This document shows positions 8,106 to 37,249 of a stretch of DNA of 43,900 nt, in pieces (the stretch's first letter is position 1; each line of letters starts with the position of its first letter). A program made the translations under genes and the position numbers. Origin of the DNA: Nitrospirota bacterium. GTDB taxonomy: Bacteria; Nitrospirota; Nitrospiria; JACRHA01. The stretch covers positions 1 to 43,900 of the forward strand of contig JACRHA010000109.1 of assembly GCA_016234185.1 (NCBI GenBank). Reading direction: 5' to 3'. The notes below the pieces were generated by a model. That model did not search any database. It was not told where the DNA came from and saw only the letters and a program-made list of their open reading frames with translations.

Positions 8106-8114
8106 GGCAAATTT

Positions 8115-10900: not shown

Positions 10901-10920
10901 GGTTGCAACCGTCAGCCCTG

Positions 10921-11037
10921 TTAATATAATACCCTCTTTAGGTAAAGTCCCTGGGGAGGGAGATTTGTCACAGCCATCCTTGGGTCTCTTGATCTGAGGA
11001 TCCCGGCCGCATCTTCCGGTCTTATCCTTCCCCTTCC
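10921..11037 (-). repeat. 117 bp duplicate of the truA 3' end (direct repeat of 12092-12208)
   Basis: 94 bp identical (10944-11037 = 12115-12208), with 5 mismatches in the terminal 23 bp. Encodes GRGRIRPEDAAGILRSRDPRMAVTNLPPQGLYLKRVLY*. Confidence 0.95.
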
Positions 11038-12041: not shown

Positions 12042-12091
12042 GGCTCTATTATAACTGAATATGAAACTTTATACAGTTTACATCCTATCTG

Positions 12092-18530: not shown

Positions 18531-18755
18531 CTATTGCAGGGGCTCGCGCGCCCCCTCCACCGGCAAAGCCGAAGCGAGCATCCGGCTCGGCCGGTGCAAG
18601 CGCGGGGTGTGGGGGCATCGGAGGAGCCACTGCACCGCACGGGCCCCTACAGATGATCGTCGCCTCCCCCTCAACGCTCGCCTGGCTCGCTGGATAGATC
18701 TAAAGGGGCTTGCGTCGCCTCGCCCCTACAACTCAACGCTCGCTTTGCTCGCTGG
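18531..18755 (-). repeat. Modular intergenic palindromic element, copy 2 (two units, reverse orientation)
   Basis: Reverse complement of the copy 1 arms, with the same TAGATCTA junction between units. 40 bp identical to 39859-39898. Confidence 0.9.
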
Positions 18756-18896
18756 AGGTCCGTGTTACCTGATGCTATCTAAATATTGTCATACGTATAG
18801 AAAGTATGTTAGAATTTTTTCTAAAAGAATTTTTGGTGAAGAGCCTTGGCCTCGAGGCCGGGCAGGTATGATAAGATCATTTTTGGAGGAATTAGC

Positions 18897-20702: not shown

Positions 20703-20817
20703 GATATGTATCTGCCATTTTAATTGAATTAAACTCCCTTCTGACAGGCTGATAATTGATGATTTGAAAAAGGTATAGTAATTAATAGTCTCGAAATGTA
20801 TTGACTTACCACCAGAT

Positions 20818-20903
20818 TGTCATCCCCGAATGTTTCTATCGGGGATCCAGAAAATGCATAAGAAAAGACTGGATTCCCGCCCAGAATCGTTGCGGGAATG
20901 ACG
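20818..20903. repeat. (C/T)GTC-tagged REP-like inverted doublet, copy 1
   Basis: TGTCATCCCCGA..TCGGGGATCCAG...CTGGATTCCCGC..GCGGGAATGACG. Confidence 0.85.
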
Positions 20904-20992
20904 TTTTTAAAGTATAGTAATGTTGTGATTATTATAAGACCGTTAATAACATAATTCCGGCAAAAACAATTTTCCGGGCGGAGAGAGGAGAT

Positions 20993-22189: not shown

Positions 22190-22235
22190 GGCTGAGGCTG
22201 AGGAAATACTTAACCTTAACCTTCTTCCTCGACAT

Positions 22236-23072
22236 TTGCCTATTATGAAGATAGCGATTGAGACCATCCAAAATCTAAGGTGGCAGGATATACTGGATAT
22301 ACTCCTTGTTGCCTTTATAATCTACAGGCTGATATTGATTATAAAGGGGACACGGACATTTCAGGTGCTTGCCGGCCTTGCCGTACTCCTATTGGTCATT
22401 ATTGTATCCAGGTGGATAGAACTACGTACTATGGACTGGATCTTTACAAAACTCTGGTCCCAGATTGTAATTGTGCTTATCATACTATTTCATCCGGAGA
22501 TAAGAAGGGCGCTTGCACAGATAGGGAAGAACCCATTTAGCAATATTACACCTATGGAGGAATTTAAGACCCTTGAGGAGATTGTGAAGGCCTCTGTCTC
22601 TCTTGCAAATAAGAAGATAGGTGGAATTATTGTCCTTGAACGGGAGATAGACCTGAGGGAGATAGTGGAGATGGGGATACAGCTTGACGCAAAGGTCTCA
22701 AAGGAGATCTTAAACATCATCTTTCTTCCTCAATCGCCGATACATGACGGGGCAGTGATTATAAAAGGGAACCGCATTGTTGCGGCAGGCTGCTTCCTTC
22801 CCTTGAGTCTGAGCCCTGATATAAGCAAGATATTCGGTACGCGTCACAGGGCGGCCATGGGCATAACAGAAGAGACCGATGCAGTGGCAATAGCATTATC
22901 GGAGGAGATGGGGACGATTTCAGTGATAATTGGCGGGAAGATGACGAGGGAGGTAGACGCAGCCACGCTCCGGAGGATCCTCACCAAGATCTTCATTAAA
23001 GAGATGAAGAAAGATGGCCTGCCGATAATTCAAAGATTAAGAAATCTCTTCCCTGAAAGGACTGCAAAATAA
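22236..23072 (+). CDS. cdaA: Membrane diadenylate cyclase (CdaA/DacA)
   Basis: Three TMs, IHDGAVII, GTRHRAA, SEEMGTIS. Confidence 0.92.
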   Translation: MPIMKIAIETIQNLRWQDILDILLVAFIIYRLILIIKGTRTFQVLAGLAVLLLVIIVSRWIELRTMDWIFTKLWSQIVIVLIILFHPEIRRALAQIGKNPFSNITPMEEFKTLEEIVKASVSLANKKIGGIIVLEREIDLREIVEMGIQLDAKVSKEILNIIFLPQSPIHDGAVIIKGNRIVAAGCFLPLSLSPDISKIFGTRHRAAMGITEETDAVAIALSEEMGTISVIIGGKMTREVDAATLRRILTKIFIKEMKKDGLPIIQRLRNLFPERTAK

Positions 23073-23135
23073 TAGATGCAGACCTCAATGTACAAACCCA
23101 TTCAGTCATGGCAGGTATTAGGGGAGGTCTGATTT

Positions 23136-24233
23136 TTAATTGGAGGTATTTGAGAGCGGTGAAAATCCGTCGAGTCTGCTTATTCCGCCTATGGCTCCAA
23201 ACCACCTATATCCCTCCCTGTCTATGGCAACGGTAAAGAGGCTTTCTCCCACTAAACCATCTTTTTCCTTGAAACTACGCCATTTCTCTCCATCCATCAT
23301 GCTGACCCCTCCTTCGGTGGCAGCCCATAAGACTCCGTTCTTATCTATTGTGATGTCTGAGACGAAATTTCCTGCCAATCCATCTCTTACAGAGTAGTTT
23401 TTCCATCCATTTCCGTCAAACCTGCTTATCCCTGCACCCCATGTACCGAACCATTTGTTATTCTTTGAGTCTACTGTTATTGAAAGTACAAAGTTAGGAT
23501 TATATCCTTCAACTGATTTCTCGGGCTCCCGGGTGTGATACCTGCTCTTTACCTCTGTCCTTTCATAATCCCCTATCTCCTTTTTGTTTGCCCCAAGACC
23601 ATTTTCATGGTTATAATTTTTCCAAATCTTTCCGTCGAAGCTGCTTACACCTGCCTCTGTGCCAAACCATTTAATCCCAGTATTATCTATGGCCGCTGCG
23701 TATACCCATTCATCAGGTAGGCCGTCTTCAACTGAGTATGATCTCCATCCCCTCCCGTCGAATATACTCACACCCTTCCAATTTGCAACCCACATAGACC
23801 CGTCGCTATCCCAGACGATATCGTAGACATAGGGGTCAGCAAGGTCAGGGACTGTATATGTCTTAAAAGACTTACCATCAAATCTTGCCAGCCCTCCCCC
23901 ATGGGTCCCAATCCACTTGGCGCCGTCCTTGCCGATCTTAATCGTTGTTATTGCATTTGATATCAAACCGTTCTTCGCATCATACCTCTCTGTTATCCTG
24001 TCTTTTATCATGTCATATTTTAGGAGACCCTTATCAGTACCGACCCAGATAAAATTCTCCTCGAAGGCAAGGGCATATACATTACCATTTATCTGATAGT
24101 TGGTCCAGACAGGCTTCTGGGAATATAATGACCTATCCTGGTCCTTCTTTGCGCACCCTTGAAAGATAAAATAGGTAAGGATCAAAAATAAAAGAATGGA
24201 TATAAACTTGTAACCTTGGTAAGGATTGAACAT
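23136..24233 (-). CDS. Lipoprotein with two-component-regulator beta-propeller repeats
   Basis: Lipobox IFQG-C, repeated D..G.xWxGTxxGxSxFDGxxW..Y...DGL units. Confidence 0.85.
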   Translation of the reverse strand: MFNPYQGYKFISILLFLILTYFIFQGCAKKDQDRSLYSQKPVWTNYQINGNVYALAFEENFIWVGTDKGLLKYDMIKDRITERYDAKNGLISNAITTIKIGKDGAKWIGTHGGGLARFDGKSFKTYTVPDLADPYVYDIVWDSDGSMWVANWKGVSIFDGRGWRSYSVEDGLPDEWVYAAAIDNTGIKWFGTEAGVSSFDGKIWKNYNHENGLGANKKEIGDYERTEVKSRYHTREPEKSVEGYNPNFVLSITVDSKNNKWFGTWGAGISRFDGNGWKNYSVRDGLAGNFVSDITIDKNGVLWAATEGGVSMMDGEKWRSFKEKDGLVGESLFTVAIDREGYRWFGAIGGISRLDGFSPLSNTSN

Positions 24234-24303
24234 TTAAAGCCTTTTAGAATAAGTTTATACCCCACTCAGGAAGCATATGTCAAGCCGACGCACTAAGAAA
24301 ATC

Positions 24304-24393
24304 TGTCATTCCCGAATGATCCTATCGGGAATCTAGGTATATTTCTTCGAAACTTCAAAACCAGATCCCCGATAAAACATTTCGGGGATGACA
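24304..24393. repeat. TGTC-tagged REP-like inverted doublet, copy 2
   Basis: TGTCATTCCCGA..TCGGGAATCT...AGATCCCCGA..TCGGGGATGACA. Confidence 0.85.
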
Positions 24394-24492
24394 TCTTAGG
24401 GGTCGGGGATGGCATAAAACGCACTGCAATCCCTGTTCTTGTAATAATACTCTATTCCGTAGGGCAACGGTGCAGTATGATATAATAAAAAA

Positions 24493-25977
24493 ATGTGTTT
24501 TGATAATATCAACACTATTGCACTGAGGCCTCTGGTAGAATCAGATCTCTGTTTTAAATGTGATGTCTGTTGCAGGTTTATTGATAAAGAATCCCCGTTG
24601 CGGCCGTATTTTTCAAGGGATGAGATAGGGAGGCTGATTAATGCCGGGAATTCTCCTGTGCCATTCAAAAGGCTGGATGGCTGCAAGATAGATCTGATAC
24701 CTTATGGGAATTTGCATATTTGTCCTTTTTTCGATCCCGAAGAAAATAAGTGTACCATATATGAAATGAGGCCCCTTGATTGCAAGATATATCCGGTGGC
24801 TGTCATGAGGGCCTGTAATGAGGCATGTCTTTTTATCGGTCTGGACACAAAGTGTCCAATTTCCGAAGATGTGAGGCATGATGATGTCAGGTATTGCGCT
24901 GATTTTATCTCATCATTGGATGATTATGAGGCAGTCTTGGGCATAATTGGCGATTATCAGGAAGATGTGAAGGTCATCATATCTCTCGGAGGGGGACAAC
25001 GTCCCCCATACGTTCACCCATGTAGGGGCGACCCTGTGTGGTCGCCCAGGGCAGGCACACAGGCCTGCCCCTACGAGATCCCATCTTATCTCAAAAAGCT
25101 TAGCATAGAGGATAAGCCGGTCTTTGATAAATTCCTCTTCGGCACAAGCAGGCTATCATCCCATTCATTCATTGCAAATTATATCTGGGGAGACCTCCTT
25201 AGCTACTATTGGAAGATAATAGATGGATGCCTCTGTGTCTTTGCGGAATATGACCAAAACATATTTATGCCTATACCTCCGGCAGGCAATAATCCAGGGA
25301 CGGCATCTGCTAAGGCATTTGAGATAATGGCTAAGGTCAATAAAAACCCCTCTGTATCACGGATTGAGGATCTTGATGCTAAGGAATTAAAAGAGATCTT
25401 ATCGCCTGGATACAGGCATGCATTGAAGGGTTGCGAATATATTTACAGGAGGGATGATCTTGTATCGCTTAAAGGCAACCCCTATAAAGGGAAGAGGTCT
25501 TCAGTTAATCGCTTCTTGAGCCGTTTCAATTGTAGCTATGAGCCCTTTCGGACTTCTGATCTTGGTGATTGCCTGTCTCTATATATACGCTGGATGAAGG
25601 AGAGGTATGCGTCAAATCAGGATAATACTTACAGGCATATGCTCTATGATTCATATTCCGCGCACAGAAGGGCAATGAAAGATCATGATGACCTTGATTT
25701 GATAGGCCGGGTAGTCAGGATCAATGGGTATATGGCCGGATATACCTTCGGTTTCAGGTTGGGCCCAGATATTTTTGCAGTCCTGTCTGAGATTGTGGAT
25801 AGGACTGCCAGGGGGCTTCCTCAGTTTATCTTCAGGGAATTATGCAAAGGACTTGAAGGTGTCAGTTTCATAAACACTATGGACGACTCAGGACTTGAGA
25901 GTATAAGAAGGACAAAGCTCTCCTATCACCCAAGCATGCTTGAGCCATCTTATATAGTCGCCCTGGATATTGGATAA
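24493..25977 (+). CDS. YkgJ-type CxxCxxCC cysteine-cluster domain fused to a DUF2156 (GNAT-like) domain
   Basis: CFKCDVCC...CPFF....CTIYEMRPLDCKIYP, EYIYRRDDLVSLKG..YKGKR, INTMDDSGLESIRRTKLSYHP. Confidence 0.85.
   Translation: MCFDNINTIALRPLVESDLCFKCDVCCRFIDKESPLRPYFSRDEIGRLINAGNSPVPFKRLDGCKIDLIPYGNLHICPFFDPEENKCTIYEMRPLDCKIYPVAVMRACNEACLFIGLDTKCPISEDVRHDDVRYCADFISSLDDYEAVLGIIGDYQEDVKVIISLGGGQRPPYVHPCRGDPVWSPRAGTQACPYEIPSYLKKLSIEDKPVFDKFLFGTSRLSSHSFIANYIWGDLLSYYWKIIDGCLCVFAEYDQNIFMPIPPAGNNPGTASAKAFEIMAKVNKNPSVSRIEDLDAKELKEILSPGYRHALKGCEYIYRRDDLVSLKGNPYKGKRSSVNRFLSRFNCSYEPFRTSDLGDCLSLYIRWMKERYASNQDNTYRHMLYDSYSAHRRAMKDHDDLDLIGRVVRINGYMAGYTFGFRLGPDIFAVLSEIVDRTARGLPQFIFRELCKGLEGVSFINTMDDSGLESIRRTKLSYHPSMLEPSYIVALDIG
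24991..25074. repeat. GGGGGAC/GTCCCCC palindrome plus a GTAG-type REP doublet, in frame inside a CDS
   Basis: GTAGGGGCGACC-CTGTGT-GGTCGCCC A GGGCAGGC-ACACAG-GCCTGCCCCTAC at 25022-25074. Confidence 0.9.
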
Positions 25978-25985
25978 TTGATTAT

Positions 25986-26366
25986 CTAATCCTCGGCAAG
26001 GTGGATAATGATTTCCTTCTCGTTGATGAGCCAAATATCCAGATCCGGGTCTCCATCTAAGTTTCCTTCGGCCCTGGCTGTAAATTTATTAGGATCTGAG
26101 ATGGGTTCAATGGCAATCGTATAGTAATTTAAGGGTTGCATAGGCGAGAATCCTATTTCAGAGATGCTGTCGGAATAGCGATCATGGTCTGCGAAATACA
26201 TCCTTTCAAGCCTTACGATCTCTTTCAGTGCGAGCTGTGCCTCTACCTGTTTTGCCTTCTTTAAGAAATATTGATATATAGGGATGGCGATTCCCATCAA
26301 AATAGCGGTAATTAAGAGCACTAATACCAGCTCTATAAGGGTAAAGCCCTTATCTTTTCTCTTCAT
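25986..26366 (-). CDS. Type IV pilin (PilE/PilA-like)
   Basis: KG|FTLIEL prepilin site, E5, P22, KAKQVEA. 119 aa mature. Confidence 0.92.
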   Translation of the reverse strand: MKRKDKGFTLIELVLVLLITAILMGIAIPIYQYFLKKAKQVEAQLALKEIVRLERMYFADHDRYSDSISEIGFSPMQPLNYYTIAIEPISDPNKFTARAEGNLDGDPDLDIWLINEKEIIIHLAED

Positions 26367-26961
26367 TTTGACCTGATAGCTTAAACCTTTTCAGTAGATC
26401 CCTGATCTCCTTATTCTTTTCGGCAATCCTTTCCATTCTTTCAATCAGATCCTGCCTGTTATTTAAGCCATCTGAACTACTTAAATCCGTCAGGATCCCC
26501 TGGAGATCTGCCCCCACATCCCTCTCCACCCTCTTTATATTCATCATTGATTTGTCTATGTTTCCCAATAGCTGATTTAAGAGGTTGGCAAGCTCCTTCA
26601 GGTCATCTCCTTTTCTGAGTCTGATCCTCACTGAGAGGTCGCCGCCTATCACATCTTTAGCCGTCTTTTCAAACCTGTATATTGGGCCTGCAAGTTTATG
26701 TGTGATATATACACTTATAATAGCGAGGATAGAGATGCTTATGGCGATTGCAGGCCATATCCTTTCGCCCAGCACTATATACTGCATGGCCGCCTGTGCC
26801 TTCTCTTCAAGGGACGAGCCTGAGATGAGCGTTATTGCCGGCGGGAGAAAGAGGATTATGACTATCAGGAATGTATATGTGGCGAGGAGGATAGCAGTGA
26901 GGAGCGCATACTTCTTCTGGATAGGATGGATATAGAACCTTCGTCGTTTAAAAAGCCCCAA
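26350..26961 (-). CDS. Two-TM HAMP-domain protein with a short coiled-coil tail
   Basis: THKLAGPIYRFE...GDLSVRIRLRKGDDLKELA. GAGGGG RBS before the TTG at 26961. Confidence 0.8.
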   Translation of the reverse strand: MGLFKRRRFYIHPIQKKYALLTAILLATYTFLIVIILFLPPAITLISGSSLEEKAQAAMQYIVLGERIWPAIAISISILAIISVYITHKLAGPIYRFEKTAKDVIGGDLSVRIRLRKGDDLKELANLLNQLLGNIDKSMMNIKRVERDVGADLQGILTDLSSSDGLNNRQDLIERMERIAEKNKEIRDLLKRFKLSGQNEEKR

Positions 26962-26975
26962 ATATAAACCCCCTC

Positions 26976-27992
26976 TTAGATGGTCATTAATTTTTTTCTT
27001 AACAATAACATTTCCAGTGCAATAGACGCTGCCCATGCCAGCTTCTTAATGAAATCTATTTCGGAGATCCCCTTGCCGGACTTAATATTGTCCCCATATA
27101 AGATTGCCACGACCTGATCTTTTATTGTAAGGGGTATTGCAATTACCTCCTTTGGAAAGCGATCGTCAATCCTTTTCAGGAGGATCTGATTTCCCTGGGT
27201 AGCGATGAGTGGACCGCTATAAGGTTCTTTACTCTCAATAACGTCAAGGAAGATCGACGGCTGGTCAAGTCTGATCTCAAGGCCTTCCAGCGTCTCCTTC
27301 TCAGTATGAGACGGATGTGCCCTCCACCCTGATACAACCCCCTTCTTAACTATAAATATTATAGCCCTGTCAAGGACAAGGCCTATATTCTTCATCAAGA
27401 TCCCTATGATCTCCTCCCTCTCCTTTGTTTGAAGGAGGTCTTCCTTTGCTGTCTTGAGGTATGTGTCAAGCTCTTCAGGGGTGAGTTTCTTCTGTTCTGT
27501 TATATCCTCTTCTGTTAACCTCTTCCTCTCCTCATCAAGGATCGATATATATCGCAATTTCCTGCTCACCTGATAATATTTCTCCAGTGCAAACTGGATC
27601 CTTGCCTCTGCTGCAATAGATGTCTTGATTGCACAATTTGTCATAAAACCGATCTCATTTATCGCATCAAAATCTGTCGGGTCCAGCATGGCAACATGCA
27701 GGGTATTCTTCTCTTTTCGCAGCGGGATTATATTAAATTTTCTGGCCAGATCACGTGTAATGAGCCTTAATGCATCGGGATCTATCTGGTCAAAATCCTT
27801 GGGTCTTGCAAAGGGTATATTTAACCTTCTGCTTAAGAAGCCTGCAAGCTCCTCTTCGCTTAGATATCCAAGCTCTATGAGATTTGTGCCAAGGCGGCCG
27901 CCTACTGTAAGCTGTCTTTCAAGGACATGGGCAAGCTCTTCCTCTGTTATAAGGCCCTCCTTCACAAGAAGATCCCCAAGTTTTTCAGTCAA
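26976..27992 (-). CDS. MshEN/GspE N-terminal + GAF-like protein without an ATPase domain
   Basis: KLGDLLVKEGLI..EL..VLERQ, RLGTNLIELG, LHVAMLDP, C-terminal AILYGDN. No Walker A. The start could be as far as 28040. Confidence 0.85.
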   Translation of the reverse strand: MTEKLGDLLVKEGLITEEELAHVLERQLTVGGRLGTNLIELGYLSEEELAGFLSRRLNIPFARPKDFDQIDPDALRLITRDLARKFNIIPLRKEKNTLHVAMLDPTDFDAINEIGFMTNCAIKTSIAAEARIQFALEKYYQVSRKLRYISILDEERKRLTEEDITEQKKLTPEELDTYLKTAKEDLLQTKEREEIIGILMKNIGLVLDRAIIFIVKKGVVSGWRAHPSHTEKETLEGLEIRLDQPSIFLDVIESKEPYSGPLIATQGNQILLKRIDDRFPKEVIAIPLTIKDQVVAILYGDNIKSGKGISEIDFIKKLAWAASIALEMLLLRKKLMTI

Positions 27993-28065
27993 TTCTTCCA
28001 CCGTCACTAGTAGAGATGCATTATTTTTATAAATTATCATATTAAGGACTACAAAGACAATTAGT

Positions 28066-29871
28066 TTACTGTGGCGCTACCTCACGCCAGCTTACGACCT
28101 CCTTCTTTGGGTTACGCGCTATAAACATAAAATTTCGCATCCTGTCATCGTAGTTCAACGTAAGACCGATCTTTGCCGGATCATAGTTTACAGCATGGCC
28201 ATCAGGGCCAGGGATCAATATCCCTATATCAGCACTGACCAATGCCCCATTAACCGTTGTCTTTTTTTGCCCCACCTTATTTATTCCAAAGATGGCATTG
28301 CTGGTATAAATAAGGGTATCAATCTGTGATATCCCGGTAGTGAGATCAAGGAAGGAGCCGGCATACTCATTCGTTGTTATCCACTTATTTGATGTGTAGG
28401 TTTCAGGTGTATAAGCAACGACCTCGTCTCCCCCTGCAGGGGTTATAGTCCCTCCATTCTTGCATATAGTCCCATCACTGCATTTATAGTATCTTCGATC
28501 CCCAGAAGGTATACCTGAACTTTCCGTTTTTGAGTTAAATTCCTTAGCCTGCTTATCTATAAAATCACCGCCTCCGGTTGACGCAGTTGCCTTAGGTCTG
28601 TAATCCCCCATAACTACGTTTCCTCCGGCAGCCAGTGCTAATTTATCTGTGGATGCATCACTATATGTCACCGCCCCTGCCAGATAGATATTCCCGCCTG
28701 TATAGATATTCCCGGCCCCTTTCACGCACCCCTTTATAACGATATCGCCATCTACTACAATAGGACCATCTATCACGATGCAGGAGGCAGTGCCATCCAG
28801 GATCAGGTTGCCTGCATAGGTTTGACTTACCGTTGCAATGGTCGTTGCGCCTGCACCTCCGGAATATGTGCTTCCCGTAGAAACCCCTTTTATTGTTCCC
28901 CCGGTTATAGAGCTACCAGCGCCGTCTTTATAGGCCGCTGCCTGGGTCTTATAAATACTTAGGTCTTCTATCTTGGGCCAGCTTGGATTTCCGTTCGCAT
29001 CGAGTGGGAACCTTGGGTCAGAATAACCTGTGGTAATATCTATGGGCTGCTCATTATTCCCCTCTACTGTACTATAATCTCCATTACCATCAGAATATGC
29101 GCTCACAACCTTCGAATAAAACTTACCGTCACCATCCTTATCCGGATGACCACCGCTATCTACAGCCGTCCCATCAGCCGTTTGATAGACACCGTTGCTA
29201 TCTTTGAAGGGCGCATCCAGATTGGTAATGCCGGCGGTATAGATCTTCCCGTTGATAATTGAGTAGGCCTCATTCTCCTTTCTGATGGTCACACTTTCCA
29301 GGGAGACCACATCGCCATTTATCTGGGCATGACATAAGAGGCATTCGGTATTCTGGGTCAGAACACCATAGGGAAACTCAAAGGATGTATAGGAGAACCT
29401 GACTTTTGCTTCTACTGCCCTCTGAGGTTCATCAGGGTCCACTGACTGGTTGTTATTATTATCGTACCAGCCCGTTGAGATATAGGTCACGACCTTATCA
29501 CCAGTAGCAGGATCAGGGCCGTAGCCGGTCACTGCGACCTTATATCTGTTTTTTGCACCTGTATCAACATTAACCAGGAGAGCGGGAAGGGCCCCAAGGC
29601 CATTGATATAGTTATCCAGGGGTGTAAAACTTACGGTTGTGGCCGATCCAAAACCCGAATCGCGCCAGACGATATTGTTTGCCTTATCTATGCCACCTTC
29701 AGCAAGGAAGAGGAGGCGATTTGCCGACCGTTCGTTTCCCGTAATTGAGATCTCTGTGTTAGATAGATAAAGTGCGGAAAGCCCTATGGCAGTAAGGATA
29801 ACAAGGGCAAGGAGGGCTATTATCAAGGCAAAGCCATCATTATTTTTCAAGCTAATTTTTATCTTTTTCAT
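28066..29871 (-). CDS. PilX-like minor pilin with a large C-terminal domain and a CxxCH motif
   Basis: DG|FALIIALL (no E5, as in PilX), LFLAEGGI, CLLCH at 29329-29343. GAGGAG RBS. Confidence 0.85.
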   Translation of the reverse strand: MKKIKISLKNNDGFALIIALLALVILTAIGLSALYLSNTEISITGNERSANRLLFLAEGGIDKANNIVWRDSGFGSATTVSFTPLDNYINGLGALPALLVNVDTGAKNRYKVAVTGYGPDPATGDKVVTYISTGWYDNNNNQSVDPDEPQRAVEAKVRFSYTSFEFPYGVLTQNTECLLCHAQINGDVVSLESVTIRKENEAYSIINGKIYTAGITNLDAPFKDSNGVYQTADGTAVDSGGHPDKDGDGKFYSKVVSAYSDGNGDYSTVEGNNEQPIDITTGYSDPRFPLDANGNPSWPKIEDLSIYKTQAAAYKDGAGSSITGGTIKGVSTGSTYSGGAGATTIATVSQTYAGNLILDGTASCIVIDGPIVVDGDIVIKGCVKGAGNIYTGGNIYLAGAVTYSDASTDKLALAAGGNVVMGDYRPKATASTGGGDFIDKQAKEFNSKTESSGIPSGDRRYYKCSDGTICKNGGTITPAGGDEVVAYTPETYTSNKWITTNEYAGSFLDLTTGISQIDTLIYTSNAIFGINKVGQKKTTVNGALVSADIGILIPGPDGHAVNYDPAKIGLTLNYDDRMRNFMFIARNPKKEVVSWREVAPQ

Positions 29872-29921
29872 AGGAATTCTCCTCTTTCTATATTGGAATT
29901 GCATTCCATAAAATCTTTAAT

Positions 29922-32900
29922 CTAAGGTGTAGTAAATGTAATGGTGCTCGTCTTTACCGTTGTATCTGCACCAACTGTATAATTAAAAGTTATGGTAAAT
30001 GTTACACCCCGCATATCCACATCCTTGCCTTTAGTGTCCTTGAATGTCAGTTCGTTAAAGGTGTATGTTGCACCCTTGTTTATTTTTACTACCTTACATG
30101 AGGTAGTTGATATTGTGCTGCCTGATGAGGCCCTGGTTCCGCTCCCGCCACATTTATCGAATTCCCAGACATTGGTTCCTCCGCTGCAGCCTTTACTGGG
30201 TGGATTACCTTCTGATTTTATCTTGTCCAAAAATGCCCCGGCCTTATCCCAGGATATTGTCATGCTCTGGATAGTTGCAAAGTCTGAATGGTCGTTTTCT
30301 ACTATAAAACCTGCCTTCTCATGTCCACCACCACAGGTCCCGGAGCTCCCGGAGACATAGGTGATTAGGCCGCCGGTAGAGGTAATTGTAATATCCTGGG
30401 TCGCATTTACGGAAACCCCGCTGATTGTAATCTCAGCCTTTACCGTAACTGTACCTGTACCTGAACCGCTCGTGAGGGTAGATGCAGCGATGCCGGCAGA
30501 TGGGGTTACAGGGGTAGGGCTGATGGCAGCCCCCTGATTACCAGAGACAAAACTGAAACTCACCTGCGAACCAACAGGTGGTTGGGTAACTACCCCGCTG
30601 CTGTAAGTAGTCGCCGTTAATGTCGATGTGCCGCCCCCTCCGCCGCCGCTGCTTATATTTGTTGGGCTTGCAGAGAGGGTAATGCTCCAGGAGTTAAAAT
30701 CAACAGTAGTAGAGCTTGTGCCGCAAAAGGCTGCGGCATTGATGGTTGCTGTACCGGAAGATGTCCCGCTGGTAAGGGTTGTCGTGGCTATCCCGCTCGA
30801 GTTGGTCGTTGCGGATGTTGGTGACAATGACCCGCCTATACCCCCCGGGGTTGTTGTCAAAGAAAAGGTCACATTCTCATTTGCTATGGCATTATTCGTC
30901 TGCGAATCGGTAACAGTGGCGCTAATAGCTGATGTGCTGGTACCATTTGGCAGTATCCATTTCGGATTTGCAGAAATGACAACATTGCAGCTCTTTATTG
31001 ACAGGTCAAGTTCACCTTCCCCGCACGCGCCTACAGCGGTTATGCGGACCGTACCAGGGGTAGAATTATTGGCAGTAAATGTCGTAGTAAACTGCCCACT
31101 GGCGTTTGTCGTTCCGGATGAAGAGGAGAGGGAGCCTAATGAAGGGTTGTCAAGGGATAGACTGACAGGCGTAGAAGCAATGGGCAGACCTGTTGATGGG
31201 TCGATAAAGGTAGTTGTTACAGTGGTGGGGCCTCCCAACGGTACAGAGGATGGGCTTGCTAGTACAGTAACATTACACCCCGTAAACTGGACCTGCGCCG
31301 TTCCAACGCTATTCGCGCACTGGGCGGCATTCGATGGGACACTGGCGGTAATATCTGCTGTATGCGGATAAGGGCTGCTGGTTAGAGATACGCCTACCTG
31401 GCCGCTGATATTTGTTGTGCCTGATATAGTTTTTACCTGTGTGGATGGATTAAAGGTGCCCTCTGTGGTCACAAGGTCTATTTGAATGCCGCTCACCAGA
31501 TTGTTGCTGAGGTCTTTTAAGGTTGCCGTTACAGGCGTGTTGCTGGCGCCATCCCCCATTATTGCATTATATGTTGGCACTACAGCGAGGGAACATGTTG
31601 TAAATGGCACATTAACAAACCCTGATTTTGTGGTAGCAGGTTCTGTTGCCGTAATTGTCGCCGTTCCATCGCTGGTTCCAGATGTGAGTATTGTAGTGGC
31701 CTTTCCACCGGTTGTTAGTCCTGTTGCCGGGTTAAGACCGCCGCCTATCCCTGAGGGGCTGGTGGCTATGGAGAAATTGACTGCCGTATTATCTGCTACA
31801 GGCAGGCCGCACGAGTCTAAGAGCGTAGCAGTGATAGTGGACTTACTGATCCCATCAGAGGGGAGGGCGGCAGGAATTGCTCCTACTGTTACGGTGTTGG
31901 CAGGTCCGCTCGAATAATATACAGTTGTCAGACCGCTATAGCTCTTGCCTATTATGGTGCCAGTACCAATAACTGTTGCAGAACCGCCAACACCTGCGAT
32001 GTTATAAAGGGAGACCGATGCCTGCCCGCTGCTATTTGTAGTTCCAGTAGCAGTGGTAACCGAACTAAGATTATCAAAACTGCCCCCTGTTACAGCAAAA
32101 TTGATCTGGATTCCTGCAATTGGACCACCCTGGTCATCCTGCGTTGTTGCCGTAATAGTTGAGAATACACCTGCAAACGGGCACGATAGTGTCTGAGGGC
32201 TTGCAGAGAGCACCAGCGACGGCGAGATCACCACCTGTACAACAGGGTTCCTCGGATCTATTTCTGATGTGACCGTCATATCATGATACTTATAAGCGGC
32301 GCCATGAGCTGAGGCACTGTAATTCTCATCAACCCTTAATGTCTCTGCTGTTAATGTAACGGAAACCCTGCTTATGTTGGCTAACTCATTGGCAAGGGTT
32401 GTGGGGGTTGCTACTGCGCGGATGTCCCCATTATTATTTGTTACGGAGGTGTTTGACATATATAATGTCTTTGGTCTTCCACCATTGCCGGTAAGAAGCG
32501 CCGTGATCTCTCCCTGTTCTAATTTCCCATTGTTAGCAGTGCCTCCATTTGAGCCGTCATCACCCCACAGGTATTCATCAATAACCCCATTTCCATTTAC
32601 ATCCCTCTCCCCAACCTTTGAATCAATAATACCATCCTGATTCTTATCCTCCCTGATCCAGTATTGTAATAGCGGTATGGGACGCGTTCCATCGGGGTAA
32701 GGTTCAGGTCCCCTAACCCCTTCTGTCATTATGGGTATACTTTTGCCTGCCCCTGTAAAACTGCTGCCATTATTTGCTCCATTAAAGCCAAAGGGCTGGC
32801 GGTATAAGCGATAAAGATTAGGGTTTGTTGTGGAATTGGGATCAATGGTATTCATCCTGTCATTATTGTCAATTACTCCATCATCATTAGAGTCGAGGGT

Positions 32901-33326
32901 CCACCTGACGGTCTCTGCCCCGGTGCCTCCTGAACTATAATCTACGCCGGGATTATAGGCAACGACGCCTGAGGCAACTGCAGGGTTTGCAGGAACCTGA
33001 CCCGGCGATACGCCAGGTTTTATGGCCAAGAGAGAACCAGAGCTATCAATGTCGGCATTGAAGATTATTTCGTATGGGGCGGCCGTAACAAAGGTTACCT
33101 GGCCATTGACTGTATTTATGCCATATCCAGCCATTCGAATATCCCTTTCCAGATCAAAGATACCATTCCTTGTATTCTGCTGTAATTGGGTCAACTGGCT
33201 CTGTATTACCGATGATTTGTAATAAGAAGTATAGAGTTCATAAATGGCAGCGACAACGATACTGGAGATCACCAGGGTAATCATCAACTCAATTAGGGTA
33301 AAACCTTTTTTGTTAAGTACCAACAT
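29922..33326 (-). CDS. Giant PilW-like minor pilin fused to about six Big_1-type (invasin/intimin) Ig repeats
   Basis: KG|FTLIEL, LERDIRMAGY, pilin end DPRN, then repeats of STITAT..D..G.P....V.F...T..G.A...LTS. Confidence 0.88.
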   Translation of the reverse strand: MLVLNKKGFTLIELMITLVISSIVVAAIYELYTSYYKSSVIQSQLTQLQQNTRNGIFDLERDIRMAGYGINTVNGQVTFVTAAPYEIIFNADIDSSGSLLAIKPGVSPGQVPANPAVASGVVAYNPGVDYSSGGTGAETVRWTLDSNDDGVIDNNDRMNTIDPNSTTNPNLYRLYRQPFGFNGANNGSSFTGAGKSIPIMTEGVRGPEPYPDGTRPIPLLQYWIREDKNQDGIIDSKVGERDVNGNGVIDEYLWGDDGSNGGTANNGKLEQGEITALLTGNGGRPKTLYMSNTSVTNNNGDIRAVATPTTLANELANISRVSVTLTAETLRVDENYSASAHGAAYKYHDMTVTSEIDPRNPVVQVVISPSLVLSASPQTLSCPFAGVFSTITATTQDDQGGPIAGIQINFAVTGGSFDNLSSVTTATGTTNSSGQASVSLYNIAGVGGSATVIGTGTIIGKSYSGLTTVYYSSGPANTVTVGAIPAALPSDGISKSTITATLLDSCGLPVADNTAVNFSIATSPSGIGGGLNPATGLTTGGKATTILTSGTSDGTATITATEPATTKSGFVNVPFTTCSLAVVPTYNAIMGDGASNTPVTATLKDLSNNLVSGIQIDLVTTEGTFNPSTQVKTISGTTNISGQVGVSLTSSPYPHTADITASVPSNAAQCANSVGTAQVQFTGCNVTVLASPSSVPLGGPTTVTTTFIDPSTGLPIASTPVSLSLDNPSLGSLSSSSGTTNASGQFTTTFTANNSTPGTVRITAVGACGEGELDLSIKSCNVVISANPKWILPNGTSTSAISATVTDSQTNNAIANENVTFSLTTTPGGIGGSLSPTSATTNSSGIATTTLTSGTSSGTATINAAAFCGTSSTTVDFNSWSITLSASPTNISSGGGGGGTSTLTATTYSSGVVTQPPVGSQVSFSFVSGNQGAAISPTPVTPSAGIAASTLTSGSGTGTVTVKAEITISGVSVNATQDITITSTGGLITYVSGSSGTCGGGHEKAGFIVENDHSDFATIQSMTISWDKAGAFLDKIKSEGNPPSKGCSGGTNVWEFDKCGGSGTRASSGSTISTTSCKVVKINKGATYTFNELTFKDTKGKDVDMRGVTFTITFNYTVGADTTVKTSTITFTTP

Positions 33327-33357
33327 AGTTTTTCTCCAAATATGTCTGTACAATTAT

Positions 33358-33903
33358 CTATAAAATCCCTCGGTCCCTTATGGTTGCAAACTGGACACTA
33401 TGAATCTTGACAGGGTTCCCCGGATCTATCCACTCGACCTTGACTGAGATATCTTTTAAGGTAATATCCCCAAATCCGTCTGTTTGTTCTGCGGTCACAG
33501 TGATGGTTCTTTTAATTTTCATCGTCACGTTTCCTCCACTATAACCTGAGAGTGTATTGATATTTACATAGTCTGCATCGTTATTGAAGACATTGTATTG
33601 AGCGCTCCCATTATTAGCCCGAAGACAGTCTACCACCCCTGCAAGATTAGGATCCCCGCTTGCTATCTGGCAAGGTGCAGAGGCGTTTGCGCTCCTCATT
33701 GCATAAAAGGGGACATTCTTTGCCTGTTCTATCATATCGAGGGCGATGTTATTTGCCGTACTACCCCTTTTAACGAGGCTATTAGACATCATCTGTGCGG
33801 TATATAATCCTGAAATACCCAGAAGACCAATAGATAGTATTGCTAAGGCAATTAAGACCTCTAACAAGGTAAATCCCCTTTCGGTCTTAAATAGAATATT
33901 CAT
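33358..33903 (-). CDS. pilV: PilV-like minor pilin
   Basis: RG|FTLLEVLIALAILSIGLLG, ISVKVEW. Confidence 0.8.
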   Translation of the reverse strand: MNILFKTERGFTLLEVLIALAILSIGLLGISGLYTAQMMSNSLVKRGSTANNIALDMIEQAKNVPFYAMRSANASAPCQIASGDPNLAGVVDCLRANNGSAQYNVFNNDADYVNINTLSGYSGGNVTMKIKRTITVTAEQTDGFGDITLKDISVKVEWIDPGNPVKIHSVQFATIRDRGIL

Positions 33904-33920
33904 TGCATATCTCCTGATAT

Positions 33921-34421
33921 CTATGTCTTAATTGTCTGAACATATCCTGTTCTTGCTGTTATCTGAATCCTGTAGAGTTTCCCCTTTTGATTCGTAATAT
34001 CAATATTATGTGTATTGCTCGTAAAATTTTTCATCCTGCCGTCGGGACCGAAAACGCAGATATAGTTACCCCCTCCATCTGTCGGTAGATCTGACACCAG
34101 ATATGTTATCCCCGGAGGTAAGGTTTGTGCTGCCGACTCTGTTGCCCATACACCAGATCCGGTGTAGGCATTTCCTTTATCAATCTGATAGGTATTTGCA
34201 CTAGGGTCAAACAGCACCCTGAACTCCACCCCATTTGAGATAGACCTGTATCGGGCTGTTGTTAGCGCAGAGCTTAGGTTCCCTGATGCCTCCCTTATGC
34301 GAAGTGAAGGCAGCAACGCGATATAACTTGGAACTGCAATCATTACCATAATACCTATAATTGCCAGTACCACCATTAATTCTATTAAGGTAAATCCATT
34401 TTTGTTAGTTATGTATCGCAT
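33921..34421 (-). CDS. fimT: FimT/FimU (GspH-like) minor pilin
   Basis: NG|FTLIELMVVLAIIGI...VPSY, L..ARYRSI, F.PDG, I....G.V. Confidence 0.8.
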   Translation of the reverse strand: MRYITNKNGFTLIELMVVLAIIGIMVMIAVPSYIALLPSLRIREASGNLSSALTTARYRSISNGVEFRVLFDPSANTYQIDKGNAYTGSGVWATESAAQTLPPGITYLVSDLPTDGGGNYICVFGPDGRMKNFTSNTHNIDITNQKGKLYRIQITARTGYVQTIKT

Positions 34422-34434
34422 ACTTGCCTTTTAC

Positions 34435-34451
34435 TGCAATAAAGATGCCAA
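34435..34451 (-). promoter_or_regulatory. Sigma54 (-24/-12) promoter of the pilin operon
   Basis: Minus strand TTGGCATCTTTATTGCA = GG-N10-GC, fitting TGGCAY-N4-TTGCW. Confidence 0.75.
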
Positions 34452-34544
34452 TTATTTTACAATACAATTCTCATAGTTTATAATGAATTATAACGTAAAC
34501 AAGAAGAAATACAAGTAACTAAGGTCTGAAATAGGAGGTAGCAG

Positions 34545-34562
34545 TATGTAACTGATTACATA
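34545..34562. promoter_or_regulatory. Inverted repeat, candidate transcription factor or enhancer site
   Basis: TATGTAA-CTGA-TTACATA between the divergent fimT and degP promoters. Confidence 0.5.
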
Positions 34563-34594
34563 GTTTAAGGGGCAGGTTAATCCTGTCAAAAGGG

Positions 34595-34623
34595 TTTACT
34601 TTTCCTTTTGGGGATAGTATAAT
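34595..34623 (+). promoter_or_regulatory. Sigma70 promoter of degP
   Basis: TTTACT-17 bp-TATAAT. Confidence 0.6.
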
Positions 34624-34686
34624 TTAAATAACATTATGATTAAATTATAAATAATTCTGCAGATTTATATCATTTCGGAGGGATTT

Positions 34687-36186
34687 ATGAATAAGTTTTT
34701 ACACCGTAAAAGAATTAAAGGTCTTCTTCTCGCAATCCTCCTTATTGGCCTGGGTATCACAGCAGGGATGATCATATCTTCTGACCTCGGTCTGTTTTCA
34801 AGCGGAGAGGCTGTAAATGAAGGGGTTAGGAAGGTTTCAGTGCCCCTGCCATTTACAGGACAGAGTTTTGTTGATGTTGCAAAGACAGCAACGCCGGCAG
34901 TGGTAAATATATCAACCACCAGAAAGGTGGCGGGTCCCGGCAGATCCCCGCTTGATCCATTCTTTGAGGACCCCTTCTTTCGGCGGTTTTTTGGTGATGA
35001 GTTCCAAAGACGCGGGGTTCCAAAGGAGAGAAAGGAGCAATCTCTCGGATCGGGCGTTATCGTTGATCCGGGTGGGCTTATAGTGACGAATAATCATGTA
35101 GTCTCCCAGGCCGATGAGATAGTAGTCCTATTGTCGGACAGGAGGGAGTTCAAGGGAAAACTCATTGGTACAGACCCTAAGTCTGATATTGCTGTGGTAA
35201 AGATCGAGGCCAAGGACCTTCCATTTCTTGCGTGGGGTGATTCAGATAAGCTCCAGGTGGGTGAATATGCCCTGGCCATAGGGAATCCCTTCGGCCTGAA
35301 TCAGACGGTCACAGCAGGGATTATAAGTGCCGTAGGCAGGGCCAACGTTGGAATAGCAGAATATGAAGACTTTATTCAGACCGATGCAGCGATCAACCCG
35401 GGAAACTCCGGTGGGGCGCTCGTGAATGTTAAGGGGGAACTAATAGGTATCAATACAGCAATATTCAGCCGGAGCGGCGGTTATATGGGCATAGGCTTTG
35501 CTGTGCCGAGCAGCATGGCCAAGGCAGTTGTTGACAGCCTTGTTAAGTCGGGAAAGGTTGTCAGGGGATGGCTCGGTGTCTCGATCCAGGTGATAAGTCA
35601 GGAACTGGCAAAGGAATTTGGATTAAAGGACAATAAAGGGGTCCTTGTCAGTGATGTGGCGGCAAACAGCCCTGCTGGAAAGGGGGGGCTGTTGAGGGGA
35701 GATGTGATAACGGAGTATGACGGGAAGGTAGTTGATGAACCAAACCATCTGCGGAACATGGTTGCCCAGACCCCTATAGGAAAAAAGGTAAGGCTTAAGA
35801 TCATGCGGGATAAGAGGGAAAAGGAGATAGAGCTTGCCATAGGCGAACTTCCAGCGGAGGCCCAGGTGTCAGGGGAGGAGAGGTCAGAAGGAGTGGCCGG
35901 AAATGTATTGGAAGGACTTGAGGTTGCCGACATAACCCCTGATATTGCCAGGGAGCTTGGTCTTTCCAAGGGAGAAACGGGTGTGGTTGTGACAAGTATA
36001 ATTCCAGGGAGTCCGATAGAGGGGGCTGGATTGCAGGAGGGGGATGTGATAACAGAGATAAACAGGAAACCAGTGAGGAATACCAAGGACTTCGACTCAG
36101 TCGTTTCCCGGATAAAGGCCAATGAATCGGCACTTATCCTTGTAACAAGAGCGGGAAGAAAGAGCTTTATTATCGCAAAACCATAG
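34687..36186 (+). CDS. degP: HtrA/DegP-DegQ serine protease with two PDZ domains
   Basis: TNNHVV, DIAVVKI, QTDAAINPGNSGG, GWLGV, two PDZ domains. Confidence 0.93.
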   Translation: MNKFLHRKRIKGLLLAILLIGLGITAGMIISSDLGLFSSGEAVNEGVRKVSVPLPFTGQSFVDVAKTATPAVVNISTTRKVAGPGRSPLDPFFEDPFFRRFFGDEFQRRGVPKERKEQSLGSGVIVDPGGLIVTNNHVVSQADEIVVLLSDRREFKGKLIGTDPKSDIAVVKIEAKDLPFLAWGDSDKLQVGEYALAIGNPFGLNQTVTAGIISAVGRANVGIAEYEDFIQTDAAINPGNSGGALVNVKGELIGINTAIFSRSGGYMGIGFAVPSSMAKAVVDSLVKSGKVVRGWLGVSIQVISQELAKEFGLKDNKGVLVSDVAANSPAGKGGLLRGDVITEYDGKVVDEPNHLRNMVAQTPIGKKVRLKIMRDKREKEIELAIGELPAEAQVSGEERSEGVAGNVLEGLEVADITPDIARELGLSKGETGVVVTSIIPGSPIEGAGLQEGDVITEINRKPVRNTKDFDSVVSRIKANESALILVTRAGRKSFIIAKP

Positions 36187-36229
36187 GGTTATGGCGTAAT
36201 AAAATACAATAAAAAGGTGGTGATATAAA

Positions 36230-37249
36230 ATGATCTTAAGGGCTATATTTATTTTAATAAGTTCTCTGCTTGGATGGGCCCTCTTCTCTAATATAATGGA
36301 TCTGGCTGAAGGCGGCTATTTAGGTCTTTTTGCAGGTTTTTCTACAGGTGCGGTAGTCTTGTTGTTTGAATACCAATTAAAAAAGGTTGATATAAGGACC
36401 ATTTTAGGGGGTTTTCTGGGATTGCTCCTTGGGATCCTTTCTGCAAGCCTGCTAAGTTTTCTGAGCGGTTCCATTTTTAATGAGGATCAGTTCCTCTATT
36501 TTCCATGGAGGTTTTTCCTTCTTTTATCCTTCGGATACCTCGGGCTTGCCTTTGGCATAAAGGCCGGGAAAGAGTTTTCTCCTACGGAGATAAGGAGGAT
36601 GTTGAATGATACCCCGGCTGAATCTAACAAAAAGATCCTTGATACAAGCGTGATTATCGACGGCAGGATAGCCGACCTGTGCGAGACAGGATTCCTTGAA
36701 GGTGTATTTATAGTGCCCCAGTTTATCCTTCAGGAACTGCAGCATATCGCAGATTCCTCCGATTCTATGAAGAGGGCCAGAGGAAGAAGGGGCCTGGATA
36801 TCCTCCACAGGGTACAAAAGATGGCTGATATAAATGTTAATATAATTGACGAGGATTTTCCGAATATAAAGGATGTTGACTCAAAGATAGTTGCCCTGGG
36901 CAAAAAACTGGATGCCAAGGTTATTACGAACGATCTTAACCTGAATAAGGTGGCGGAGCTCCAGGGGGTCAGGGTGTTAAATATAAATGAGCTGTGCAAT
37001 GCCTTAAAGCCGGTTGTGCTGCCCGGTGAGAGCATGAGGGTTTTTGTCCTGAAGGAGGGTAAGGAGGCTGGTCAGGGCATTGCTTATCTTGATGATGGTA
37101 CTATGATAGTTGTTGATGAGGCGCGCAGGCTTATTGGAAAGAATGCCGATGTTGTGGTAACGAGTGTACTTCAGACCACGGCAGGGAGGATGATCTTTTC
37201 GCGCCTGAAGGAGGAGACTGAGAGCTCCATCTTGCAATCTGTAAGATAA
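36230..37249 (+). CDS. PIN/TRAM domain membrane protein (YacL family)
   Basis: Four TMs, ILDTSVIIDGRI, RGRRGLDIL, YLDDGTMIVV, QTTAGRMIF. Sits upstream of ispD. Confidence 0.92.
   Translation: MILRAIFILISSLLGWALFSNIMDLAEGGYLGLFAGFSTGAVVLLFEYQLKKVDIRTILGGFLGLLLGILSASLLSFLSGSIFNEDQFLYFPWRFFLLLSFGYLGLAFGIKAGKEFSPTEIRRMLNDTPAESNKKILDTSVIIDGRIADLCETGFLEGVFIVPQFILQELQHIADSSDSMKRARGRRGLDILHRVQKMADINVNIIDEDFPNIKDVDSKIVALGKKLDAKVITNDLNLNKVAELQGVRVLNINELCNALKPVVLPGESMRVFVLKEGKEAGQGIAYLDDGTMIVVDEARRLIGKNADVVVTSVLQTTAGRMIFSRLKEETESSILQSVR

Follow-up and report, generated by a model that had tools for sequence, protein, structure and literature searches.

A candidate PilY1-independent minor-pilin module with an Ig-stalked PilW and a solenoid-headed PilX, allelic to a PilY1-type set in Nitrospirota

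We analyzed a stretch of 43,900 nucleotides (hereafter, the window; contig JACRHA010000109.1) from a groundwater Nitrospirota metagenome-assembled genome (MAG; 184 contigs totalling 1.98 Mb, completeness 85.5%, contamination 3.1%), in which an operon probably encodes the minor pilins that prime and tip a type IVa pilus. The operon consists of 7 consecutive minus-strand open reading frames (ORFs) spanning positions 25986-34421, the longest forms of which are spaced by -61 to +25 nt, and is bounded by a convergent gene ending at 25977 and a divergent htrA-like gene starting at 34687. The strand and tight spacing are as described in an earlier note on this DNA, which proposed a new pilus tip system without PilY1. 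Domains were assigned using the hidden Markov models (HMMs) of Pfam and NCBIfam, and the cut-offs given below are the curated thresholds of each model. The gene identities proposed in that note (fimT, pilV, a pilW of 1134 aa, a pilX of 601 aa, and an MshEN gene) held, whereas its GAF and HAMP assignments correspond to matches below the Pfam cut-offs. Features lie on the minus strand unless otherwise indicated.

The first gene of the operon, fimT (33921-34421), encodes a GspH/FimT-like minor pilin of 166 aa (N_methyl, 35.1 bits), and the second, pilV (33358-33903), a PilV/GspI-like minor pilin of 181 aa (N_methyl, 35.9 bits), both with Glu5. The third gene, pilW (29922-33326), encodes a PilW/GspJ-like modular pilin of 1134 aa as deposited (1143 aa in the longest ORF), in which matches to Big_1 (107 bits over 5 stretches) and Invasin_D3 (90 bits) follow N_methyl, bearing out the notion of an Ig-repeat pilin. 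Its pilin part covers residues 1 to ~365, about 6 Ig-like (Big_1/invasin) repeats occupy residues 370-985 (stalk at 30372-32219), and a C-terminal beta domain covers residues 990-1134. In the AlphaFold2 (AF2) model, the predicted local distance difference test score (pLDDT) is ~80-90 over the stalk, which folds into about 6 beta-sandwich repeats, and ~80 over the C-terminal domain. Foldseek searches with this model returned only generic multi-Ig proteins (TM ≤ 0.2) and gave no name to the C-terminal domain, for which an Atlas search yielded only clusters named “hypothetical protein.” The 9 full-length relatives of PilW (1104-1117 aa, 38-46% identical) have the same combination of N_methyl and Big_1/Invasin_D3, and our literature search on modular pilins returned no Ig stalk on a PilW-like subunit. 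Such a stalk on a pilin of this size suggests surface display, and the 6 Ig domains would make PilW an extreme case of a modular pilin.

The fourth gene, pilX (28066-29871), encodes a PilX/GspK-like cap pilin of 601 aa (612 aa in the longest ORF) with a PilX_N match of 29.0 bits (cut-off 25.5) and a faint match to GspK. In the AF2 model, computed from an alignment of 123 family sequences (pLDDT 88.9; predicted template-modelling score 0.86), PilX has a helix (residues 12-72), a pilin sheet (97-163), a beta-solenoid (163-577), and a last strand (585-598). The top match among solved structures is ComZ (6qvi; Foldseek E 4e-9; VIA Z 15.0, 330 residues, root-mean-square deviation 12.4 Å). Ice-binding proteins match the modelled residues 163-577 (Z 12-13.7; 193 residues at 3.1 Å), and the pilin PilA2 matches residues 47-161 (Z 6.0). 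Judged by the model, PilX has the architecture of ComZ, a pilin of the GspK type into which a triangular solenoid is built ahead of the last beta-strand.

The N-termini support this assignment of roles. According to the translations, FimT, PilV, PilW, and the small pilin encoded by the last gene share the prepilin N-terminus G/FTLxE (N_methyl, 35.1-35.9 bits), which in FimT, PilV, and PilW reads G/FTL(I/L)E with Gly at -1, whereas the PilX sequence reads G/FALII, giving a mature N-terminus FALII without Glu5. Absence of Glu5 is described as the rule for the distal cap subunits GspK and PilX (PMC13759059), and because PilX is without this residue, we read it as the first-assembled, distal subunit. 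The genes thus show 2 features of a type IVa core minor-pilin set, namely class III signal peptides with Glu5 in all but the distal subunit (N_methyl 35-36 bits; PilX_N 29.0 bits) and the gene order H-V-W-X within one operon at a pilus locus. Elsewhere, the genome encodes pilus machinery, with 7 T2SSE matches (5 over the cut-off), 3 secretins, 1 prepilin peptidase, and 2 PilA-type pilins on contig C152.

The remaining genes of the operon form a downstream trio. The first (26976-27992) encodes an MshEN/GAF-like protein of 338 aa as deposited (354 aa in the longest ORF), matching MshEN (68.8 bits) and NF053729 (62 bits; cut-off 38), with a sub-threshold match to GAF_3 (18.1 bits; cut-off 27). 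Under the definition of the 24-residue MshEN motif for cyclic di-GMP (c-di-GMP) that we assumed, both 24-residue halves, separated by a 5-residue spacer, are present in residues 4-56. The protein is a likely c-di-GMP receptor, in line with the c-di-GMP-type reader that the earlier note had placed in the operon. The second gene (26350-27036; 228 aa in the longest ORF, start codon uncertain) encodes a HAMP-like membrane protein with a coiled coil and 2 predicted membrane helices (HAMP, 22.9 bits; cut-off 25). The third (25986-26366) encodes the small pilin of 126 aa, which has Glu5 and no Cys, matches N_methyl (35.4 bits) and ComP_DUS (28.4 bits; cut-off 27.3), as well as the N-terminus of PilA_Myxo (69.6 bits, below the cut-off), and occupies the place that PilE holds in the Pseudomonas operon.

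Ahead of fimT lies a sigma54-type -24/-12 element (34435-34450; TGGCAT-N5-TTGCA; TGGCATCTTTATTGCA), the sole match to TGGCAY-N5-TTGCW in the window, where 0.02 are expected and 2 of 100 shuffled sequences reach 1 match. The element is unchanged in the syntenic locus of a second genome of the same genus. The motif is thus present, as the earlier note had it, and seldom expected by chance, but its function as a promoter is doubtful and unproven: the GC of the -12 element lies just 14 nt ahead of the ATG, so that a transcript starting from it would have almost no leader, and sigma70-like hexamers occur further upstream. The DNA-binding domain of RpoN was not found in the window’s incomplete genome, whereas the same-genus genome has it.

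That same-genus genome (G377; 97% complete) provided the most informative comparison. In a blastn search of the window against its syntenic locus (L047), 18691-27993 and 34351-37072 align in 5 blocks with 85-97% identity, and nothing aligns between them; the segment 27994-34350 of the window (no strand assigned) has no DNA similarity to the other locus, and the unmatched segments, 6.36 kb in the window and 8.34 kb in G377, are unrelated. The left flank common to both genomes comprises ftsH, folP, cdaA, a Reg_prop gene, a 494-aa gene, and the genes for the small pilin, the HAMP-like protein, and the MshEN/GAF protein up to its start codon, whereas the shared right flank begins with fimT, of which only ~23 codons at the 5′ end are included, and continues through the promoter region to htrA and a PIN/TRAM gene. 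In place of the window’s segment, G377 encodes FimT (189 aa), PilV (174 aa), PilW (359 aa; PF16074), and PilX (174 aa), followed by PilY1 (1467 aa; PF05567, 48.9 bits) and a 251-aa Ig-domain protein. The latter (L047 9238-9993) has He_PIG/Big_9 Ig domains and is encoded between pilY1 and the MshEN/GAF gene. PF16074 has no match to the PilW of the window, and the PilW and PilX of the window are ~3 and ~3.5 times as large as those of G377, in agreement with the claim that both greatly exceed the canonical size.

Because the flanks are 85-97% identical, the interior is unrelated, and the canonical set stands there in G377, the sequences indicate an exchange of the tip module in the form of a cassette of 6.4 kb, reaching from fimT codon ~24 to the end of pilX. 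Its borders lie in the conserved pilin N-terminal part of fimT and at the start of the MshEN gene; neither a mobile-element signature nor a long repeat was found at them, only a 34-nt, 82%-similar stretch between the N-terminal coding parts of fimT and pilW. The swap argues that either module can functionally take the place of the other and that they move as co-adapted units of 4 genes, and 2 genomes of one genus with the same locus and flanks and different tip modules amount to a natural experiment.

We looked for the module in a phylum sample of 401 genomes, consisting of 400 others and the window’s own. Full-length relatives of PilX are present in 4 of the 400 other genomes, all from a single family (f18) of another class, and all 4 of these carriers keep the core FimT-PilV-PilW (~1100 aa)-PilX (~600 aa), so that the synteny search across MAGs proposed in the earlier note yielded a conserved 4-gene core. 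PilV of the window is 37-44% identical to PilV of these carriers, and FimT matches theirs with E 1e-24 to 5e-32, compared with only 3e-10 for FimT of G377; being nearer to the other carriers than to its congener, FimT therefore travels with the 3 other cassette proteins. In a tree of 11 close PilX proteins and 5 outgroups, rooted by midpoint only, the window protein and 2 metagenomic proteins, P0002 and P0003, together form the sister group of the clade holding P0004 (from the carrier G014), and because the window protein is not nested inside that clade, no donor of the cassette can be named.

In the same sample, the PilY1 model PF05567 matches 201 of the 401 genomes, including 60 of the 75 in family f2 of the window’s class, but none of the 5 carriers (completeness of the 4 others, 89-99%), and family f18 is without a match in all 7 of its genomes. 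The genome-wide search that the earlier note had called for gave no PF05567 match at E ≤ 1 in the window’s genome, including the ORFs of the operon, and a phmmer search with the PilY1 of G377 against all its ORFs of at least 60 aa also returned nothing. The claim that PilY1 is missing thus stands as far as these searches go, although in a genome that is 85.5% complete it amounts to PilY1 not being found. A PilY1 encoded in the unassembled 15%, or too divergent for the search, might complete the tip, with the big pilins serving merely as accessory adhesins, and both the fragmentation of the assembly and the PilY1 of the congener speak for such a reading. We nevertheless consider it quite improbable: pilY1 of G377 sits inside this very locus, which is contiguous in the window’s genome without it; none of the 4 other carriers, 3 of which are 91-99% complete, nor any genome of their family has a match; and the genome’s second minor-pilin set, on contig C152, is likewise without a following PilY1.

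Taken together, the gene content, the allelic position of the PilY1-type set, and the distribution of the module point to a type IVa minor-pilin operon in which the genus-typical pilV-pilW-pilX-pilY1 set, with its small Ig-domain gene, would have been replaced by a PilY1-independent module. We put the probability of this reading at roughly 70%, as a joint figure for the nature of the operon, the cassette exchange, and the PilY1-independent tip. Several observations weigh against it. Among pilin-family HMM matches, only N_methyl and PilX_N exceed their curated cut-offs, whereas GspH (TIGR01708, 43 bits vs 80), PilV (TIGR02523, 39.1 vs 52.2), PpdB (PRK10557, 39.7 vs 120), and GspK (21.1 vs 130) remain below theirs; because the family matches are sub-threshold, the names FimT, PilV, PilW, and PilX rest on gene order, size, N-termini, and synteny. 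In PilW, confidence of the model is low across the pilin part (pLDDT < 50 over residues 61-322). The incompleteness of the assembly (85.5%) leaves room for a PilY1 in DNA that was not assembled, the carriers represent only 2 lineages, so that 0 of 5 does not amount to 5 independent observations, and each allele occurs in only 1 genome of the genus.

With the G377 locus at hand, the downstream trio can be placed. The earlier note had signalling genes occupying the position of pilY1, and the comparison contradicts this: the trio lies downstream of pilY1 in G377 and is missing beside the cassette in all 4 other carriers. Within the genus, the MshEN/GAF, HAMP, and small-pilin genes belong to the constant portion of the locus and are no substitute for PilY1. 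Their G377 orthologs are close (MshEN/GAF, 93% identity; HAMP, a 203-aa ORF with E 1e-109; small pilin, E 2e-73). The MshEN/GAF family comprises at least 402 proteins, all unnamed or hypothetical, a close homolog from a record labelled “Nitrospiria bacterium” being 84% identical. When the 120 listed homologs were scanned for the double motif with a relaxed regular expression, only 12 matched, and binding of c-di-GMP may therefore not be general in the family. Of the near-full-length places listed in the phylum sample (~45), several lie within 8 kb of a PilB-like match. Relatives of the HAMP and small-pilin genes adjoin the MshEN/GAF gene only in the window’s genome and G377, and at none of 28 other loci. 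Contigs G321:C15 and G313:C96, which represent 2 more families of the class, each carry an MshEN/GAF match with a PilY1 match 2-3 kb upstream on the same strand.

The small pilin had been described as aromatic-rich, yet its composition proved ordinary: F, Y, and W make up 10.1% of the 126-aa mature protein, compared with 8.9-10.3% in 4 other pilins with the prepilin motif, 6.4% in the 181-aa PilV, and a mean of 8.0% in ORFs of at least 200 aa. Its shortness, this aromatic content, and a longest stretch of 22 residues between aromatics are values that would pass the published thresholds for conductive e-pilins, so that the operon could be imagined to build a nanowire. The wire role of e-pilins is itself disputed, 4 of the 5 other pilins tested in the genome have like values, and the gene is retained beside the PilY1-type allele of G377 at the PilE position, all of which makes a nanowire very improbable indeed. 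More probably, the small pilin would serve as a PilE-like connector.

The suggestion of a heme-motif pilin was borne out at the level of the motif. PilX contains a single CxxCH (CLLCH, residues 177-181; 29329-29343), and C177, C180, and H181 are invariant in all 10 close homologs. A family profile built from these homologs recovered 2426 representative proteins at E ≤ 0.001, of which 417 reach E ≤ 1e-10 and 14 reach E ≤ 1e-30. The best 150 of the 2426, mostly 650-850 aa long, include 131 with CxxCH in the same context (NN-x-N-C-x-x-C-H), and most of the 19 others look N-terminally truncated. C..CH is present in every one of the 141 sequences for which the alignment covers the site, the region being unaligned in the other 23 of 164, although the profile itself contains the motif and the count leans towards it accordingly. 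In 6 full-length relatives without the motif, NN[YWQG]GW stands at the site and all 3 residues are gone together. On the evidence of these alignments, the CxxCH of PilX is no chance motif. A motif-less branch of solenoid PilX proteins (P0013-P0015, of which P0013 is named Kiritimatiellae, P0133, P0144, P0149, and P0161), with aromatics (NN[YWQG]GW) in place of N-C-x-x-C-H, offers a natural control set for the question of heme.

Records of the PilX family are labelled Nitrospirota, Planctomycetota, Hydrogenedentota, Zixibacteria, Ignavibacteria, and others. The corresponding Atlas clusters are all named “hypothetical protein,” and none of 14 relatives from the best 150 had a Pfam match at the cut-off. 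We also retrieved 113 relatives from the wider family by means of a 12-row alignment using the motif N[IVT][NE]CI[FLM]CH[AT], a motif-defined set that is uninformative on motif-less members. Among the 70 loci with enough upstream DNA, at least 1 prepilin gene ends within 1.5 kb upstream in 54, and 2 such genes, typically of ~135 aa and ~210-280 aa, are present in 32.

Whether the motif binds heme is a separate matter. If it did, the CxxCH of PilX would take up covalent heme c in the periplasm before assembly, and the resulting hemoprotein tip could be redox-active, sense redox state, O2, or NO, or use heme as a structural cofactor. The strict conservation of the 3 residues, together with their joint loss in the motif-less relatives, would fit such a role; the pilin-type N-terminal anchor of PilX would leave the domain facing the periplasm; and PF01578 (cytochrome c assembly), a family that also holds proteins other than heme lyases, is matched in all 5 carriers, twice in the window’s genome and 3 times in every other one. 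There is also a precedent in the cytochrome c TfcP of Myxococcus, which is reported to act on the pilus tip complex (PMC8833165). The structural side of the evidence points the other way. The invariant columns of 123 sequences, whose rows were chosen for the motif, include no distal His or Met; the AF2 model places CxxCH in a coil at the start of the beta-solenoid, outside any cytochrome fold; and the match of the PilX profile to cytochrome c3 is insignificant (E 0.62). The window’s genome is poor in multiheme proteins, with a single six-frame ORF containing at least 3 CxxCH, and the other phyla with members of the PilX family are not known for extracellular electron transfer. A metal site, or a redox-active CxxC beside a His, would explain the conservation equally well and is a fair alternative.

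Overall, heme binding by PilX is possible, with the odds against it, and a role of the motif in electron transfer to minerals or partner cells is far less probable than heme binding. The redox-active tip for mineral or partner contact envisaged in the earlier note, for which a single CxxCH motif is at hand, is accordingly speculation. It is a bolder and rather doubtful proposition that solenoid PilX proteins with N-C-x-x-C-H, ~2400 representatives in all, constitute an extensive and hitherto hidden class of pilus tip subunits that carry heme c. If they did, many environmental bacteria would place a hemoprotein at the tip of a retractile type IV filament, for contact-dependent redox or gas sensing or for electron exchange, and the cassette swap would mark this type of tip as a drop-in alternative to PilY1. 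A large unannotated PilX-like family (no Pfam model beyond PilX_N) with a strict heme-type motif makes for a testable hypothesis, and, if heme holds, for a changed view of pilus tips in many uncultured phyla. Apart from the papers on TfcP and unrelated genome papers, our literature search, within the library that it covered, found no pilin or PilX bearing CxxCH or heme; the sole tie between a cytochrome and the pilus tip that it returned was TfcP, a separate protein that stabilizes PilY1 (PMC8833165).

Returning to the PilY1-independent module, we propose that its 4 proteins would assemble at the inner-membrane platform in the manner of GspH-I-J-K and FimU-PilVWX and prime the polymerization of the major pilin, for which the PilA-type proteins of contig C152 are candidates. 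PilX would be the first-assembled, distal subunit, its ComZ-like solenoid head capping the filament; PilW, with its stalk of about 6 Ig domains and its C-terminal beta domain, would be the likely adhesin; and FimT and PilV would belong to the same co-adapted set. The complex would come to lie at the tip of the pilus, its solenoid and Ig stalk doing the job of PilY1. The MshEN/GAF, HAMP, and small-pilin genes would most likely couple c-di-GMP to the use of the operon products and supply the connector pilin. The proposal that adhesin function has moved into the pilins themselves is thus compatible with a minor-pilin set without PilY1, with bulky domains on PilW and PilX, and with a PilY1-type set at the same place in G377, but adhesion itself is an inference.

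A set of this kind might instead build a competence or secretion filament, either a short DNA-uptake pilus with PilX as the receptor or a pseudopilus for type II secretion or polysaccharide export. ComZ, the nearest solved structure, is reported to bind DNA and has been proposed to be a DNA receptor, and a position at the pilus tip has been argued for it from steric considerations (PMC6561018); cyanobacteria are described as keeping separate solenoid-PilX sets for competence and motility (PMC13759059). The small pilin passes the ComP_DUS cut-off, and models of GspH, GspI, GspJ, and GspK are among the weak matches. Against this, the allele in G377 is a PilY1-type set of type IVa pili, the 1134-aa PilW with its Ig stalk suggests surface display, and the genome has separate GspG/I/J-like genes on contigs C58 and C78. 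We regard a competence or secretion filament as unlikely and retain the type IVa pilus tip as the preferred interpretation. Priming and capping of type IV pili without PilY1 is an open question outside Proteobacteria, on which this locus bears, and the operon’s c-di-GMP reader provides a lead to how cells with 2 pilin sets choose between them.

The second pilus locus of the genome (C152 8532-18728; L157) encodes the 2 PilA-type major pilins, a Wzy_C/TPR protein, a 290-aa ORF, GspH-, PilV-, and PilW-like pilins, a PilX_N protein of 486 aa, and then a PocR-GAF-GGDEF diguanylate cyclase, which could feed the MshEN reader of the window’s operon. The PilX of the window resembles the 486-aa protein only in the N-terminal helix (E 0.007). 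In the window itself, a CdaA-type diadenylate cyclase (DAC and CdaA_N) is encoded at 22236-23072, 3 kb from the pilin operon, so that synthesis of a second cyclic dinucleotide is encoded nearby. On the plus strand, 6479-10900 encodes in a row a DUF4388 protein, a response regulator, a CheA-like kinase (Hpt, dimerization, HATPase, and CheW domains), and a PAS protein, which may represent a chemosensory module controlling the pilus. The 3′ end of truA (minus strand, 12092-12829) is present twice, in a direct repeat of 120 nt (96% identical; 10918-11037 and 12089-12208). Its copies enclose 1.17 kb with a Big_1/CarboxypepD_reg ORF fragment, a DUF2283 ORF (39.7 bits), and a 106-aa ORF without family, and the whole resembles a small insertion with target duplication. 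The window yielded no Rfam match at gathering thresholds, and ARAGORN likewise returned nothing. Among sequencing runs, 1 DNA data set, possibly that of the source sample (a groundwater metagenome), was listed as containing the sequence, and no RNA data set was.

Compared with known systems, the arrangement of the operon resembles FimU-PilV-PilW-PilX-PilY1(-PilE) of Pseudomonas and Myxococcus, with which it shares the order of the 4 minor pilins and a terminal small pilin, and to which type the G377 locus exactly conforms; the window differs in having no PilY1 and in the MshEN/GAF and HAMP genes inserted before the last pilin. Its MshEN protein shares with the MshE and PilB ATPases an N-terminal 53-residue double motif and the MshEN fold, but has no ATPase domain, its C-terminal half being GAF-like (18 bits). 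For PilW, modular pilins offer a parallel. CofB and TcpB of type IVb pili are pilins of this kind, and in PilB and PilC of Streptococcus sanguinis, as these have been described, an adhesive module is likewise grafted on a pilin and displayed at the tip. These modular pilins, from monoderms or type IVb systems, carry vWA or lectin modules, whereas PilW of the window carries 6 tandem Big_1 Ig domains and a C-terminal domain. TfcP, from cluster_1 of Myxococcus, is reported to be likewise a CxxCH protein encoded in a minor-pilin operon and acting on the tip complex, but as a separate, soluble periplasmic, non-canonical cytochrome c that stabilizes PilY1 (PMC8833165); the motif of the window lies inside PilX, and no PilY1 was found.

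The best structural counterpart of PilX is ComZ of Thermus thermophilus, also a GspK-like pilin with a big triangular beta-solenoid of the ice-binding fold before the last beta-strand, and also encoded after other minor pilins. The sequence similarity between the 2 proteins is insignificant (E 0.12), their large root-mean-square deviation reflects a different arrangement of the domains, and ComZ is paired with small pilins, PilX of the window with an Ig-stalked PilW. Cyanobacterial PilX, for which the apical solenoid has been proposed to fulfil the capping function of PilY1 (PLoS Genet 2026, PMC13759059), likewise belongs to a core minor-pilin set without PilY1. It comes from another phylum, and the main text of that study describes no Ig-repeat PilW and contains none of the terms heme, CxxC, cytochrome, Nitrospir-, or Planctomyc-. 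A solenoid PilX standing in for PilY1 has thus already been published (PMC6561018, PMC13759059), PilY1-free tips of this kind are known, and the earlier note’s “new tip system” was an overstatement. Possibly new are the cassette allelic to a PilY1-type set, the Ig-stalked form of PilW, and the heme-type motif conserved in a large PilX family.

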